The notes beneath the pieces are model-generated. The model saw nothing but the letters and a program-made list of their open reading frames with translations, was not told the origin of the DNA and searched no databases. This document shows positions 3,788 through 48,732 of a stretch of DNA of 64,000 nucleotides, piece after piece. Position numbers and translations under genes: made by a program. Position 1 is the first letter of the stretch. Each line of letters begins with the position of its first letter. Source of the DNA: Clostridia bacterium (GTDB taxonomy: Bacteria; Bacillota; Clostridia; RUG12999); NCBI GenBank assembly GCA_045633565.1, contig JAZQYO010000024.1, positions 1,395 to 65,394 on the forward strand, written 5' to 3'.

Positions 3788-4270
3788 ATGTTCAACCTTG
3801 TTCTTGTCGAACCGGAAATCCCGCAAAACACCGGAAATATTGCACGTACCTGCAGTGTTACCGGTGCAAATCTTCATATTATTGAACCCATGGGATTTAA
3901 AATTGATGACAAAAAGTTAAAACGTGCCGGTCTTGATTACTGGCATCTGCTGAATATAACATACTATAAAAATCTGGACGATTTTTTTGAAAGAAACAGG
4001 GGCGGAAACTTTTATTTCTGCACCACAAAAGCGCCCTGTTGCTATACAGACCACGAGTATAAGGACGGAGATTTCTTCTTTTTCGGCAAAGAAACTGCCG
4101 GGCTTCCCGAAAGTCTTTTGTCAGCTAATCTTGACCGATGTATCCGCATTCCCATGCGGGAAGAAACCCGTTCACTCAATCTTTCAAACTCTGTTGCAAT
4201 CGTTTTGTACGAGGCTCTTCGCCAGACAGAGTTTGCCTCGCTTAATGAAACTTCTGCATATTTTGATTAG
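3788..4270 (+). CDS. trmL: tRNA (cytidine/uridine-2'-O)-methyltransferase TrmL (SpoU family)
   Basis: 160 aa. MFNLVLVEPEIPQNTGNIARTCSVTGANLHIIEP matches the SPOUT/TrmL N-terminus. Confidence 0.85.
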   Translation: MFNLVLVEPEIPQNTGNIARTCSVTGANLHIIEPMGFKIDDKKLKRAGLDYWHLLNITYYKNLDDFFERNRGGNFYFCTTKAPCCYTDHEYKDGDFFFFGKETAGLPESLLSANLDRCIRIPMREETRSLNLSNSVAIVLYEALRQTEFASLNETSAYFD

Positions 4271-4288
4271 AAACCGGAGAAGGCGAAA

Positions 4289-6223
4289 ATGATAAAGAAT
4301 ATTAAATATCTTGAATATTCTCCCGATATGCCTCAGTCAAAAGAGTTGGCTGAGGCTGCCGGCATTTCTCCGCTTACCGCTGCAGTTGCATTAAACCGTG
4401 GGATAAAATCCAACCAGGAGCTTTCTTCATTTATTAAAAAATCCATCTACTGTCTCCACTCCCCGTATCTTATGAAGGATATGGACAGAGCAGTGGAGAT
4501 TGTTAAAAGTGCCCTCTCCGGTGGTAAAAAAATCACTGTTTACGGGGACTATGACGTAGATGGGATAACTTCTGTGTCGATACTTGTAAAATATCTGTCC
4601 GGACTTGGTGCAGATGTTTCCTTCTACATACCAAGCCGTGAGTCTGAAGGCTATGGATTAAACTGTGAAGCTGTTAAAAAAATCCATAGCATGGGCACAA
4701 ATCTTATAATAACTGTCGACACGGGTATTACTGCGTGTGACGAAGTGGCTCTCGCCAAAGAGCTGGGTATGGAAATTCTTGTAACCGACCATCATCAGTG
4801 CCCTGACATTTTACCCGACTGCGTGGTAATAAACCCGCACAGACCCGATTGTCCCTATCCGTTCAAATCACTTTCGGGCGTTGGCGTTGTGTTTAAACTG
4901 CTCTGTGCCCTTGAAAATGAGATTTCTCTGAAAATTCTTGATATGTTCGGCGATATTATTGCAACAGGCACAATTGCCGATGTGGTGGATTTGGTTGATG
5001 AAAACCGTATTATTGTTGATTTTGGACTTAAAAAACTAATGTCATCTCCAAACAAAGGGCTTGACGCTCTTATTGTGACATCCGGACTTCGCGGACGAAC
5101 GATTGACGCATCTACAATAGGTTTTTCAATCGCTCCACGCATCAACGCTGCCGGAAGAATAGGAAACCCCGAAAAAGCTGTTCAGCTTATATTATCCGAA
5201 AGCCTGTCCGAGTGTATGGAGCTTGCAAAATATCTTGACGAAGAAAACAAGGACCGTCAGCTCCAGGAAGCTGCTATTTTGCGTGATGCCGAGAAGATGG
5301 TTGAAAGTGATGAGTCTTTTAAAGACAAGTCCATTCTTGTTCTTTCAGGATATGGCTGGCATCATGGCATTATAGGTATAGTTGCTTCAAGGATTACTTC
5401 AAAATATTATAAACCGTGTATGCTCATAAGCTGTGACGACGGAATTGGCAAGGGTTCGGGGCGCAGTGTTCCCGGTTTTAACCTTTTTGAAGCAATGAAA
5501 AGCTGTGGCGATGTGTTTGCAAAATACGGCGGTCATGAGCTTGCTGCAGGATTTACTCTGCCACCCGATAATATTGGTGCACTTGATGCCGCACTTAATA
5601 AATATGCTGCAGAAAACATGTCCGATGATGCAAAAACCCCGTCTGTTACTGTAGAATGTGAACTTCCGGTAAAATATATCACCCCGGAAGATATAGATAA
5701 CCTCCGGCTTCTTGAGCCTTTCGGCGTTTCAAATCCCAAGCCATGCTTTATATGCAGTGGCGTCAGGATTTCGGGCAAACGCCTGATGGGTGATAAGGGG
5801 CAGCATATAAAACTAAGCCTCACCAAAGACGGTCAGACTTTTGAAGCGGTAGCTTTCCGCAGACCTGATATAAACGAAAAATTTGCTATAAATGATTATA
5901 TTACGGTTATCGGCACGCTGACAATCAACGAATGGAATAATATTTCCACACCCCAGCTTATAATATCCGATATACTTCCCCCTCCCGAGGAGTTTAAAGA
6001 TGCTCCTGACAGGGACAATTTAAAGGCAGTATACAAATATCTCAAGAGTATGGGCGATAAAGTTTTTGCACAGCTTGATGAAATTTCCGAAGGCGTTTTA
6101 AATGATTTCGGCATCTCCCTTAAAAACAGTGAAATTTTAGATTGTCTTAACTTTTTCAGCCGTACGGGAGTAGCCGGATACACTCTTAAATCTGATGAAA
6201 TTACCATAACTTTTATAAAATAA
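4289..6223 (+). CDS. recJ: single-stranded-DNA-specific exonuclease RecJ
   Basis: 644 aa. DHH motifs (ITVYGDYDVDGITS, DHH) and DHHA1 (GGHELAAG). Confidence 0.95.
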   Translation: MIKNIKYLEYSPDMPQSKELAEAAGISPLTAAVALNRGIKSNQELSSFIKKSIYCLHSPYLMKDMDRAVEIVKSALSGGKKITVYGDYDVDGITSVSILVKYLSGLGADVSFYIPSRESEGYGLNCEAVKKIHSMGTNLIITVDTGITACDEVALAKELGMEILVTDHHQCPDILPDCVVINPHRPDCPYPFKSLSGVGVVFKLLCALENEISLKILDMFGDIIATGTIADVVDLVDENRIIVDFGLKKLMSSPNKGLDALIVTSGLRGRTIDASTIGFSIAPRINAAGRIGNPEKAVQLILSESLSECMELAKYLDEENKDRQLQEAAILRDAEKMVESDESFKDKSILVLSGYGWHHGIIGIVASRITSKYYKPCMLISCDDGIGKGSGRSVPGFNLFEAMKSCGDVFAKYGGHELAAGFTLPPDNIGALDAALNKYAAENMSDDAKTPSVTVECELPVKYITPEDIDNLRLLEPFGVSNPKPCFICSGVRISGKRLMGDKGQHIKLSLTKDGQTFEAVAFRRPDINEKFAINDYITVIGTLTINEWNNISTPQLIISDILPPPEEFKDAPDRDNLKAVYKYLKSMGDKVFAQLDEISEGVLNDFGISLKNSEILDCLNFFSRTGVAGYTLKSDEITITFIK

Positions 6224-46558: not shown

Positions 46559-46652
46559 AACAACACACCCTCCACATCAGAAAAATTTCCTTGTGTAACA
46601 CCCATTATAACCAATTAAACCAATTTGTCAAGATATATTTTAAAAAAATAAA

Positions 46653-46674
46653 AAGACTTGTCAAAACAAGTCTT
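46653..46674 (-). terminator. palindrome AAGACTTGT-CAAA-ACAAGTCTT; reads as an intrinsic terminator on the minus strand (T-tract follows), just upstream of the ABC-exporter promoter
   Basis: 9-bp arms. On the minus strand it is followed by TTTTTATTTTTTT, then TTGACA-16-TATAAT for the exporter gene. Confidence 0.5.
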
Positions 46675-46702
46675 GGCTACATAACAAATGCAAAGTATTT
46701 TA

Positions 46703-46884
46703 GTGAAATATCTCACTCCGTTCGATATGAAATAATTTACTCTGTAAATTGTGAAATAGAAACCTTAAGGTTTCTGTGAAATAAAATAAATCCTTTATCA
46801 CACGCCGCAAGGCGTATTTCATATTGCGAAGCAATATTTCATACACGAAGTGTATTTCACAAATCCTGAAAGGATTTATTTCAT
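46703..46884. repeat. symmetric array of eight RTGAAATA boxes (4 direct and 4 inverted) interleaved with short GNRA/GAA-loop hairpins
   Basis: GTGAAATA or ATGAAATA at 46703, 46727, 46751 and 46776 (24-24-25 nt phasing). TATTTCAT or TATTTCAC at about 46815, 46835, 46853 and 46877. Spacers form mini-hairpins: ATTTAC-TCT-GTAAAT, GAAACC-TTAA-GGTTTC, CGCC-GCAA-GGCG, TTGC-GAA-GCAA, CAC-GAA-GTG, AAATCC-TGAAA-GGATTT. Confidence 0.6.
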
Positions 46885-46900
46885 TGAAAAAACGACTTGT

Positions 46901-46939
46901 CAAAAGATGTGCTTTCTTCTTTGGCTGCCGGACTAGGAT
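46901..46939. repeat. 39-bp direct repeat copy 1: 3' 18 nt of tRNA-Gln plus 21 nt of its downstream terminator (att-like scar)
   Basis: CAAAAGATGTGCTTTCTTCTTTGGCTGCCGGACTAGGAT is identical to 47079..47117. The last 18 nt are the reverse complement of the tRNA-Gln 3' end ATCCTAGTCCGGCAGCCA. Confidence 0.75.
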
Positions 46940-47036
46940 ACCTCCGCTACGCGTCATGCATCCTCGCGGTAAACCGCTCGGACTTCGAAACTAAAAACAG
47001 TCCACAGGACTGTTTTTTTAACGTTTCTCACCCTCT

Positions 47037-47063
47037 CAGGGTTCGAATCCTGCCCGCACCCAC
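47037..47063 (+). pseudogene. orphan tRNA 3' fragment (T-arm plus acceptor 3' strand), plus strand
   Basis: TCAGGGTTCGAATCCTGCCCGCACCCA has a GGTTCGAATCC T-loop and a CCA-like end, but no matching 5' half upstream. A terminator hairpin (46994–47019) sits instead. Confidence 0.35.
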
Positions 47064-47078
47064 AACAAAAAAGCACAT

Positions 47079-47117
47079 CAAAAGATGTGCTTTCTTCTTT
47101 GGCTGCCGGACTAGGAT
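47079..47117. repeat. 39-bp direct repeat copy 2 (genuine tRNA-Gln 3' end plus its terminator half)
   Basis: See copy 1. Includes the terminator AAGCACATC-TTTT-GATGTGCTT for the minus-strand tRNA operon. Confidence 0.75.
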
Positions 47118-47173
47118 TCGAACCCAGACAAACAGAGTCAGAGTCTGTCGTGCTACCCTTACACAATCCGGCA
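47100..47173 (-). tRNA. tRNA-Gln (anticodon CUG)
   Basis: Reverse complement TGCCGGATTGTGTAAGGGTAGCACGACAGACTCTGACTCTGTTTGTCTGGGTTCGAATCCTAGTCCGGCAGCCA. Acceptor U1-A72, anticodon loop CUCUGAC, T-loop GGTTCGAATCC, encoded CCA. Confidence 0.9.
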
Positions 47174-47179
47174 ATATAT

Positions 47180-47271
47180 TGGAGGAGAGGAAGGGATTCG
47201 AACCCTCGATACGCTATTAACGTATACAGCATTTCCAATGCTGCGCCTTCAACCAACTCAACCACCTCTCC
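47180..47271 (-). tRNA. tRNA-Ser (anticodon GGA)
   Basis: Reverse complement GGAGAGGTGGTTGAGTTGGTTGAAGGCGCAGCATTGGAAATGCTGTATACGTTAATAGCGTATCGAGGGTTCGAATCCCTTCCTCTCCTCCA. 7-bp acceptor stem, long variable arm, anticodon loop UUGGAAA. Confidence 0.9.
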
Positions 47272-47532
47272 ATGAAAAGCTGAGTCATAAGCTGACAACA
47301 AAAGATATTATACCATGATTCTTCCCATTTGTCAATAATGAAATACATATTTTTTTAAAATTAATTTTTTGAAATTTTTAAAAATAAATCTTGCATTTTT
47401 TATTAACTTAGTGTATAATATATATCGTATGATTTATAATGGAATGATATGTTGTGAAAGTCTGCATATTCAGATAGAAAATTATTTAGTCAGTTTAATC
47501 CCGTGCAGACAAAGAAAGGTTTGGACTTAAAA

Positions 47533-48732
47533 ATGTATATTTCAGAAAAAGCAAAAAGGGTGAAACCATCCTCCACTCTTGCTATCACTTCAAAATTCAA
47601 GGCAATGAAAGCCGAAGGTATTGACGCAGTAGGTTTCGGTGCCGGCGAGCCGGATTTTGATACTCCGGAAGAAATTAAAAACGCCTGCAAAGACGCTTTA
47701 ACCCGCGGGGTTACCAAATACACTCCCGCTTCCGGTACTGCCGAACTTAAAATGGCAATATGCAGAAAGCTTCTTCGTGATAATGGGCTGAATTATCAGC
47801 CGGCAGATATTGTTATTTCCAACGGCGCAAAGCATTCTCTTACCAATATATTTATGGCAATCTGCAATCCGGGAGATGAAGTTATTATTCCTGCTCCCTT
47901 TTGGGTAAGTTACCCGGAAATGGTTGCAATGGCAGATGGCAAAAGCATTATTTTAAATACAACAGAGGAAAATGAATTTAAAATTTCAGCTGCGGATTTT
48001 GAAGCAGCAATCACTCCTAAAACCCGTGCAATTATTATAAACAGCCCTTCCAACCCAACAGGTTCGGTTTATACAGAGGAAGAATTGCAAAAAATTGCAG
48101 ATGTTGCTGTTAAACATGATATTTATGTTATTTCCGATGAGGTTTATGAGCATCTGATTTACGACGATGCAAATCACGTGAGCATTGCCTCTTTGGGCGA
48201 GGATATTAAAAAACTTACAATTGTCGTAAACGCAATGTCTAAAACTTATGCTATGACAGGCTGGAGAATTGGTTATACCGCATGTGAAAAAGAGCTTGCA
48301 ACAGCAATGGCTAACATTCAGTCACACGCTACGTCAAACCCCAACTCTTTTGCTCAGGCGGCATCCTGCGTGGCTTTGGACGGCTCTCTCGACTGTGTTA
48401 AAATGATGAAGGCAGAGTTTAAAAAACGCAGAGATTATATGTATAAAAGAATCAATGAGATAGCCGGTGTTTCCTGCATTATGCCAAAAGGCGCCTTCTA
48501 TATGATGATGAATATTGAGCAGATTATCGGTCATACCATGTACGGCAAAATGATAAATGGCAGTGACGACTTTGCTGACCTTTTCCTTGAAAAAGCGCTC
48601 GTTGCAGTTGTTCCCTGTAGTGGTTTTGGTGCCGATAGCTATTTGAGATGGTCCTATGCAACATCTATGGAATCCATAGAAAAAGGCTTGGACAGACTTG
48701 AAAAGTTTATAAGAGACGGGCTGGATAAGTAA
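47533..48732 (+). CDS. aspB: aspartate aminotransferase (class I aminotransferase)
   Basis: Start at MYISEKAKRVKPSSTLAITSKFKAMKAEG (typical AspAT N-terminus) rather than the track ATG 30 nt upstream. PLP-lysine motif SKTYAMTGWRIGY. Confidence 0.85.
   Translation: MYISEKAKRVKPSSTLAITSKFKAMKAEGIDAVGFGAGEPDFDTPEEIKNACKDALTRGVTKYTPASGTAELKMAICRKLLRDNGLNYQPADIVISNGAKHSLTNIFMAICNPGDEVIIPAPFWVSYPEMVAMADGKSIILNTTEENEFKISAADFEAAITPKTRAIIINSPSNPTGSVYTEEELQKIADVAVKHDIYVISDEVYEHLIYDDANHVSIASLGEDIKKLTIVVNAMSKTYAMTGWRIGYTACEKELATAMANIQSHATSNPNSFAQAASCVALDGSLDCVKMMKAEFKKRRDYMYKRINEIAGVSCIMPKGAFYMMMNIEQIIGHTMYGKMINGSDDFADLFLEKALVAVVPCSGFGADSYLRWSYATSMESIEKGLDRLEKFIRDGLDK

Follow-up and report, generated by a model that had tools for sequence, protein, structure and literature searches.

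The 3′ end of the tRNA-Gln(CTG) gene described here is present twice in direct orientation, and this duplication is probably of the attL/attR type, left when a mobile element integrated site-specifically at that end of the gene. In the window, the whole 64-kb stretch of DNA that was analyzed, the two copies are identical over 40 nt at a start-to-start spacing of 178 (Table 1). One copy belongs to the intact gene, and the other is an orphan followed by a hairpin and a cassette that contains the Gut-1 RNA motif. As a scar, the repeat is a known and ordinary kind of feature; its added value lies in the genomic context that it gives to Gut-1. We describe here the extent of the repeat, its occurrence in conspecific assemblies and relatives, the use of the same tRNA end by integrases elsewhere, and the prophage junctions that point to which copy was displaced.

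Table 1. Parts of the tRNA-Gln locus, ordered from the promoter of the tRNA unit to the far edge of the variable segment.
Feature	Position	Strand	Details
Promoter of tRNA-Ser/tRNA-Gln unit	47307..47335	-	TTGACA, 17-nt spacer, TATAAT, TG extension; 12/12 consensus match
tRNA-Ser(GGA)	47180..47271	-	ARAGORN; Rfam 51.7 bits
tRNA-Gln(CTG), intact, CCA encoded; proposed integration target, 3′ end = putative attL-side core	47100..47173	-	ARAGORN; Rfam 56.9 bits
Repeat copy 2	47078..47117	.	tRNA-Gln last 18 nt + T1 5′ arm and loop
T1, intact intrinsic terminator of tRNA-Gln	47064..47099	-	stem 47070-47093; -18.3 kcal/mol, z -6.0
Inverted, diverged copy of last ~29 nt of tRNA-Gln (T-stem to CCA), abuts T1	47036..47062	+	25/29 matched; 0/3000 shuffles as good; inverted repeat I15
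Bidirectional terminator-like hairpin inside putative remnant	46993..47019	.	-13.0 kcal/mol, z -4.8
Distal part of putative remnant, possible former arm next to core	46940..46992	-	fold alone not significant, z -0.5
Repeat copy 1 (orphan)	46900..46939	.	46922-46939 = 18-nt tRNA-Gln 3′ end; 46900-46921 = copy of T1 5′ arm + loop
Broken chimeric hairpin	46887..46921	-	-5.6 kcal/mol, z -0.8
Gut-1 RNA motif RF01706	46811..46886	-	72 bits vs gathering score 50, full-length match
Second half of Gut-1 cassette, Gut-1-like modules on opposite strand	46698..46810	+	36.7 bits at 46701-46787
T2, host terminator, far edge of variable segment	46653..46674	-	-9.6 kcal/mol, z -4.5; homology with sister contig L102 stops exactly here

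Extent and content of the repeat

The preliminary description of this locus reported a 39-bp direct duplication of the tRNA-Gln 3′ end, and this was borne out: the 39-mer has two exact copies in the window (46901-46939 and 47079-47117), the full identity reaches 40 nt, and 100 dinucleotide shuffles yielded 0 matches to the 39-mer. A third copy was not found in the 64-kb window, even with up to 3 mismatches allowed. The right copy had been taken for the authentic last 18 nt of tRNA-Gln followed by half of its terminator, and ARAGORN, Rfam, and folding all agree with that assignment, the copy being composed of these 18 nt and 22 nt of T1. The tRNA part, ATCCTAGTCCGGCAGCCA, comprises the last 2 nt of the T-loop, the 3′ strand of the T-stem, the 3′ strand of the acceptor stem, the discriminator, and the encoded CCA. 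Its start at the end of the T-loop is a canonical crossover sublocation, and its end is the encoded CCA. The orphan fragment (46939->46922) lies on the same strand as tRNA-Gln, in direct orientation, and is an exact match. The junction sequence in the window on the putative attL side is GGTTCGAATCCTAGTCCGGCAGCCA followed by AAGAAGAAAGCAC, and another junction reads GCGTAGCGGAGGT followed by ATCCTAG.

The 138-139 bp between the repeat copies consist of the 3′ arm of T1, the inverted copy of the tRNA end, the bidirectional hairpin, and a further ~50 nt, with no gene. T1 stands between an A-run and a T-run and thus is bidirectional. A terminator hairpin had been recognized in this segment before and is confirmed, while what was then called a second tRNA 3′ fragment proves to be the inverted, diverged copy of tRNA-Gln's own 3′ end. 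Several other candidates for the parts of the segment were considered and set aside. A small protein encoded in the spacer was rejected, as the differences between the window and the related locus L085 are non-synonymous throughout and compensatory in stems, which marks the sequence as non-coding. The inverted copy as an att half-site of a serine integrase is unsupported, with a span of 93 bp and a central terminator, as compared with an attP of about 47 bp in that phage family. An invertible switch bounded by the two tRNA-end copies was rejected because the inverted repeats are too imperfect (about 13/18), and a retroelement primer-binding site, for which the 18-nt complement of the tRNA end on the plus strand might have served, was dropped for want of any support nearby.

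On the far side of the orphan, the 22 nt shared with T1 run into a chimeric hairpin, in which the 5′ arm of T1 and the loop TTTTGA are joined to a 3′ arm resembling both T2 and the hairpins that precede Gut-1 elsewhere. The resemblance to T2 is also seen as repeat D4, where 46889-46910 and 46650-46671 agree at 19/22 positions. Intact hairpins stand at the same position at two other loci, with folding energies of -14.6 (L117) and -18.8 kcal/mol (L125), versus the broken hairpin of the window. The 22-nt extension destroys the pre-Gut-1 hairpin in the window, unlike at L117 and L125.

The locus in conspecific assemblies and relatives

The same layout is found in three independent conspecific assemblies (ENA ERZ28653778, ENA ERZ27256879, and NCBI GCA_017537325.1), and hence in 4/4 assemblies when the window is included. 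In the three other assemblies the repeat copies differ at 2/40 positions, with one private substitution in each copy, along with a 1-nt indel in T1. The substitution in the orphan is a private G>T at 46936. Over 1.2 kb the window differs from its conspecifics in three places, and each of them falls in 46936-47091. Such drift of the orphan, with substitutions in both the orphan and T1, is as expected for a relic.

Relatives were reached through homologues in 90% protein clusters. Among GTDB representative genomes, the flanking aminotransferase had a best match of 66% identity with no tRNAs nearby, and the species is not among the representatives. The tRNA-Ser/tRNA-Gln pair upstream of the aminotransferase gene is kept in L085, L088/L089, and L094, and one further contig (L086) breaks off precisely at the CCA of tRNA-Gln, which may point to polymorphism beginning there. 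The region downstream of tRNA-Gln is different in every relative examined (window, L085, L088, L094, L102). Homology with L088 and L094 ceases no more than 5 nt from the CCA end, and both have a different sequence right after the CCA, without the insert and also without Gut-1. T1 is present in L085, with other terminators instead in L088 and L094. In L088/L089, where the terminator is different, a pseudogene of the PF00589 C-terminal region (E = 1e-11) lies ~170 nt downstream of the orthologous tRNA-Gln. On the opposite side, L102, whose ABC transporter is 95% identical, shares sequence with the window only as far as the right edge of T2; in the L102 region, T2 ends a transporter-like gene that is EamA/DMT-like by eye. 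Because homology with L102 ends at T2 and L088 and L094 diverge after the CCA, the variable segment spans 46675-47099, between T2 and the CCA end of tRNA-Gln.

The closest comparison is with L085, in which the aminotransferase is 86% identical and the aligned stretch, 46944-47600 of the window, has an overall identity of about 80%. T1 and the 138-bp segment in full are present in L085, without the orphan and without Gut-1, and its homology to the window begins at 46944, no more than 4 nt away from the inner edge of the orphan. Two hairpins of the segment carry compensatory changes between the two sequences: the stem of the hairpin at 46993-47019 reads CAGTCC/GGACTG versus CAGTTC/GAACTG, and a small hairpin at 46961-46982, in the distal part, has one compensatory change. 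The inverted tRNA-end copy, by contrast, has freely diverged. A decayed orphan in L085 was sought and not accepted, as the local alignment is marginal (p about 0.03-0.04).

Comparison with relatives thus shows a region downstream of this tRNA-Gln that varies by lineage and carries an integrase pseudogene in one of them, and no larger intact insertion was found. An intact element at this tRNA-Gln was not found in the relatives or conspecific assemblies examined. An empty site, in which tRNA-Gln would be followed directly by the hairpin and Gut-1, was not found in the relatives examined, and all of the conspecific assemblies are occupied.

Integrases at this tRNA end

The same tRNA end is used as a core by integrase-bearing elements elsewhere. 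Six IMG/VR viral contigs carry TGGCTGCCGGACTAGGAT(TCGAA...) without a complete tRNA, and in 4/6 the fragment has a PF00589 tyrosine integrase gene 23-115 nt away. These represent unremarkable int-attP modules directed at a tRNA-Gln that has this 3′ end. The modules in IMG/VR contigs L095, L096, L099, and L100 have as an orphan core the identical 18 nt (up to 29 nt) of the tRNA-Gln 3′ end that is duplicated in the window. They differ from the window in that the phage core adjoins the PF00589 gene, the identity stops at the CCA, and Gut-1 is absent, while the window is without an integrase. Indeed, Gut-1, sought as the mark of an intact cognate phage, was found on 0/6 contigs with the 18-mer.

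No integrase gene or fragment was found between the repeats or in the 64-kb window (tblastn with four tyrosine integrases, the L088 remnant, and a serine integrase). The preliminary description had read the repeat as the signature of a tyrosine integrase. The att-type duplication itself finds support, by way of comparison, in its extent from T-loop to CCA, the viral cores, the L088 pseudogene, and the host-side cassette described below. Because there is no integrase between the repeats or in the window, the recombinase type, tyrosine, is inferred.

The Gut-1 cassette and prophage junctions

Gut-1 begins 14 nt beyond the orphan copy, 35 nt past the orphan's CCA, where Rfam places it; it was absent from the preliminary description. 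Weinberg et al. 2010 described Gut-1 as a candidate noncoding RNA and listed it only from human-gut environmental sequence (PMC2864571). The window match covers the full model and shows the repeated UGAAAU-plus-hairpin modules of RF01706. It differs from the published motif in that here Gut-1 forms one half of a two-stranded cassette of ~190 nt, follows a tRNA 3′ end at a distance of 33-40 nt (at five loci), and is found in assembled MAGs and viral contigs, as compared with the environmental sequence of Weinberg et al. 2010 (PMC2864571). The cassette of the window (46698-46886) is identical to that of L117 at 173/188 positions and 87% identical to that of L132. Gut-1 reaches the Rfam gathering score on viral contigs L117, L125, L132, L133, L136, and L202 and on GenBank MT835590, the last being the sole match to the cassette in a blastn search of a phage collection.

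The loci that allow a comparison come from other organisms and concern other tRNAs, so that the argument is one by analogy. At five loci (the window, L117, L125, L202/L204, and L203), Gut-1 is preceded, at a distance of 33-40 nt, by a tRNA 3′ end or fragment that terminates in CCA, and between the CCA and Gut-1 stands an element made up of an A-run, a hairpin, and a T-run; this hairpin is terminator-like in L117 and L125. No conserved promoter for Gut-1 was seen across the loci compared. Following the cassette, phage lysis genes are found in L125, and a small HTH gene and then bacterial genes in L204.

At three of the four other loci (L204, L117, and L203), the cassette is the host-side flank of a prophage junction. 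One phage is present in both contigs L204 and L205, its tyrosine integrase (PF00589, 103.6 bits) being 100% identical between them; the two contigs are identical as far as the CCA of a ~32-nt tRNA fragment, past which they are unrelated. The L204 flank is composed of a hairpin, Gut-1 (75.6 bits), a gene for a 61-aa HTH protein, an ACT-like gene, and the start of addB (N-terminus, E = 2e-17); this flank is bacterial chromosome. Likewise, L137 (= L117) and L138 carry the same serine-integrase phage and are identical as far as ...TCCACCA at the 3′ end of the integrase gene, becoming unrelated beyond; the flank in L117 runs on to an 18-nt tRNA-end fragment, a hairpin, and Gut-1. In L203, the serine-integrase gene ends in ...CACCACCA, with a hairpin and a Gut-1-like cassette immediately after it. 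As the phages end at the core and the paired contigs are unrelated beyond it (L204/L205, L137/L138), the unit of tRNA 3′ end, hairpin, and Gut-1 is the displaced host side of prophage junctions (attR). The opposite assignment, with the cassette as a phage-borne P′ arm of attP, is rejected by the same two pairs, in which the phages end at the core, and by addB, which follows in L204. A P′ arm is possible for L125 only, where phage lysis genes follow.

The Gut-1 cassette is the main evidence for which copy was displaced. Because the same hairpin and cassette flank the host side of three prophage junctions, the orphan of the window (46922-46939) together with its cassette would be, by analogy, the end that tRNA-Gln originally had, displaced along with the flank that once lay downstream. 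An independent locus repeats the layout of the window on a different gene: in L125, on tRNA-Leu(GAG), a promoter and the intact tRNA are followed by a terminator, a partial tRNA-end copy in inverted orientation, hairpins, the orphan, an intact hairpin, and Gut-1, in that order. The L125 orphan is an exact 21-nt repeat, from T-loop to CCA, 163 nt downstream, and the inverted copy at the analogous place has a p of about 7e-4.

Proposed origin of the repeat

In the model that we favor, the element carried its own tRNA end (T-loop to CCA) and terminator. Strand exchange in the T-loop region would have joined the 5′ part of the host gene to the 3′ part of the element (47100-47117 and T1) and so restored an intact tRNA-Gln, while the original host 3′ end would have been pushed downstream, surviving as the 18-nt orphan still joined to the former tRNA-downstream sequence, that is, the hairpin and the Gut-1 cassette. 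The cassette, in turn, may derive from an element integrated earlier, of which it would be the tRNA-proximal end; the arrangement would then be one of tandem accretion. Alternatively, the cassette may be plain host DNA. The element would then have lost its integrase and all other genes, shrinking to the CIME-like 138-bp remnant, which cannot move on its own. The empty site that the model predicts is tRNA-Gln...CCA followed by AAAAAACGACTTGTC...GACAAGTCGTTTTTTCAATGAAAT. The preliminary description had offered an excised or decayed element, or tandem accretion; decay and accretion are reasonable, whereas excision is impossible because precise excision leaves no duplicate.

Besides the lack of an integrase in the window and of an empty site or intact element in the relatives, further observations sit less easily with this model. 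First, the repeat extends 22 nt past the CCA, which is unexplained by integration alone, and ends in the loop TCAAAA that T1 shares with T2. An extension of this kind into a lineage-specific terminator looks more like illegitimate recombination or gene conversion than the product of an integrase, and it is assumed in the model that the extra identity arose later, by gene conversion or loop-to-loop illegitimate recombination. Second, L085, with the remnant but without the orphan, is not predicted by the simple model, and an extra event must be assumed.

Alternative explanations

The three short inserts in the window, L125, and L117 are unrelated in sequence and yet built alike, down to a cognate tRNA-end copy that stands inverted beside the terminator, which is unpredicted by random decay. 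Such a shared design would be compatible with a miniature element devoid of genes, or with a functional module. Under the former, the ~140-nt segment would be a natural miniature integrative element of fixed design (core, terminator, inverted core copy, hairpin, short arm), mobilized in trans by phage or ICE integrases and retargeted among tRNAs (Gln, Leu, and a third). The Gut-1 cassette would then be a second small module residing 33-40 nt downstream of tRNA 3′ ends, either a tRNA-linked RNA or the end of an unrecognized family of small integrative elements. We consider a miniature element of this kind a possibility worth keeping in mind, albeit an unlikely one.

The boundaries of the repeat bear on a second explanation, in which no mobile element took part and the repeat arose by local copying independent of any recombinase, through a 178-bp tandem duplication and deletion, template switching at the terminator hairpins, or gene conversion. 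The outer boundary in the T1 loop, the identity reaching beyond the tRNA, and the junction itself, a clean chimera of a T2-like arm, the shared loop, and a T1 arm, are what such copying could produce, and the lack of an integrase in the window and the conservation of the inter-copy segment in L085 are also consistent with it. However, local copying leaves the T-loop position of the inner boundary unexplained, as well as the match between the position of the orphan and the displaced cores of prophage junctions, and it does not account for L125, where an exact T-loop-to-CCA repeat on another tRNA ends exactly at the CCA. It also needs at least two events. For these reasons we hold it to be decidedly unlikely as the origin of the whole repeat, though it may still explain the 22-nt extension alone.

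The fixed order of parts raises the further question of whether the arrangement is selected rather than a relic, with the tRNA-end fragment, the inverted copy, and the hairpins acting at the level of RNA or DNA, either as binding sites or as processing or termination signals by which the 5′ end of Gut-1 or its expression would be determined. The same order at three different tRNAs with unrelated spacers, the steady distance between CCA and Gut-1 at five loci, the compensatory changes in two hairpins, and the presence of the arrangement in all four conspecific assemblies would fit a functional module. Yet the hairpin before Gut-1 is broken in the window (z -0.8), conspecific strains have substitutions in the orphan and in T1, the inverted copy has diverged freely between the window and L085, and no promoter is conserved. 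Moreover, the parts are separable, as L085 keeps the spacer without the orphan and Gut-1, while in L203 and L204 the core-hairpin-Gut-1 unit stands alone, with no spacer module. Selection for such a module thus seems very unlikely to us. Finally, a collapsed or chimeric assembly join at the tRNA, suggested by the several short-read contigs of relatives that break inside or beside these tRNAs, can be dismissed, given the same arrangement with copy-specific SNPs in three independent assemblies from different samples and pipelines.

Relation to known integrative elements

Integration at the 3′ end of tRNA-Gln, the origin that we favor, places the locus beside two known kinds of element. Islands and prophages integrated in tRNA genes are recognized, by the principle that PMC4383910 states with reference to Williams 2002, from an intact tDNA and a displaced cognate 3′ fragment. 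In the Islander database, 3760/3919 islands have a 3′ tDNA fragment, and 1836 have an attP site in the T-stem region (PMC4383910); given these figures, a repeat that runs from the T-loop through the CCA is what is expected for a displaced tDNA fragment. The window resembles these islands in having an intact tRNA and an exact direct 3′ fragment from T-stem/loop to 3′ end, in a core common to integrase-bearing viral contigs, and in a regenerated gene with its own terminator. In contrast to them, the 'island' of the window is 138 bp long and without an integrase, and so fails the integrase and length filters of Islander; in addition, the identity continues 22 nt past the tRNA, and a sister species has the insert without the fragment.

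A CIME, in the account that PMC5704250 gives citing Pavlovic 2004 and Bellanger 2011, is an integrase-less cis-mobilizable element that keeps attL and attR, and accretion is the arrival of a second module at the distal att copy. The loss of integration and transfer genes with retention of attL and attR is what is found here, as the copies match at 40/40 positions and the segment between them has no gene. Like a CIME, the window has an integrase-less segment with putative attL and attR at the 3′ end of its target gene, in tandem with a Gut-1 cassette that begins at the distal att copy. Known CIMEs differ in being kilobases long and derived from ICEs or IMEs in streptococci, as compared with the 138 bp of the putative one described here. 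Outside L085, no homologue of this 138-bp segment was found, two metagenome pattern scans and one viral scan having yielded no match.

Biological significance

The scar identifies tRNA-Gln as a site where mobile DNA has landed, and perhaps still lands, in a Clostridia lineage that is uncultured and represented solely by MAGs. The preliminary description regarded the site as probably still a functional attB hotspot, and that it serves as one today is plausible. For Gut-1, an orphan motif described in 2010 without genomic context, there is now a reproducible one: a two-stranded cassette that lies after a tRNA 3′ end, in a segment displaced by prophages. The loci and their neighbors are now available for work on the function of Gut-1, together with a set of look-alike mini-inserts for work on mobilization in trans.

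Variation at the tRNA-Gln 3′ end

Across 1.2 kb, the window and three conspecific assemblies differ at only three places (46936, 47066/47067, and 47091), all of which fall in or between the two copies of the tRNA-Gln 3′-end duplication. In a sister species, position 1 of a 50-kb metagenome scaffold (L086) is the exact CCA end of tRNA-Gln, a break that suggests strain-level variation beginning at exactly that point. A C-terminal tyrosine-integrase pseudogene (...HELRHTCG...LGHSSIDVTTKLYVHE...) adjoins the orthologous tRNA-Gln in a contig from a Monoglobales MAG (L088, about 5100-5282) and also in L089; within 5.4 kb the tRNA end is not duplicated. The window organism belongs to an uncultured Clostridia lineage, known here from MAGs only (e.g., GCA_017537325.1); the genome collection contains no closely related species representative, and an 85%-identical homologue of the aminotransferase carries the label Monoglobales.

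The window at 46961-46982 and the sister-species sequence L085 (about 5425-5445) share a small hairpin whose 2x2 internal loop has tandem G·A on the minus strand; its pairing is preserved between them by a compensatory change from G-C to A-T. Also on the minus strand of L085 (about 5345-5400), an extended -10 promoter-like sequence, TGATATAAT, faces the thioredoxin gene's bidirectional terminator, so that the sister species could make a small RNA of ~90 nt from it. In the window, the ABC-transporter gene is preceded by two near-consensus promoters (12/12 and 11/12; 46604-46664, minus strand), the second having its -35 element inside the 3′ arm of the host terminator T2.

Architecture and neighbours of the Gut-1 cassette

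What Rfam models as Gut-1 is just one half of a conserved cassette that spans ~190-210 nt. The cassette begins with four UGAAAU-plus-hairpin modules on one strand and continues with three or four more on the opposite strand. One contig, L132, carries two cassettes in tandem with a period of 213 nt.

Positions of Gut-1 cassettes and of example serine-integrase crossover sites
Feature	Sequence	Position
Gut-1 cassette	window	46698-46886
Gut-1 cassette	L117	6873-7060
Gut-1 cassettes (tandem)	L132	530-1027
Gut-1 cassette	L202	321-499
Gut-1 cassette	L125	6560-6740
Serine-integrase crossover	L140	about 4250-4330
Serine-integrase crossover	L137 vs L138	5489

In GenBank record MT835590 (2554-2898), a promoter comes after the cassette, together with a gene whose product matches the PF05635 "23S rRNA-intervening sequence" four-helix-bundle (86 bits); by eye, L132 (about 1-520) has the same promoter and PF05635-type gene neighbourhood, while L202 and L204 carry a Cro/CI-type HTH gene in place of the PF05635 gene. 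The "Bacteriophage sp." label of MT835590 is doubtful because its remaining neighbours look bacterial, for example a 539-aa ORF that by eye resembles a sugar kinase.

Serine integrases with an internal crossover site

In a family of large serine integrases on gut viral contigs (L137-L200), the crossover site lies within the 3′ end of the integrase gene itself. This site is a conserved ...GCTCCACCA, a mimic of a tRNA 3′ end, and sites of the L140 type contain the dyad GTTCGGAT...ATCCGAAC. Because crossover takes place inside the 3′ end of the gene, integration alters the C-terminus of the serine integrase itself.
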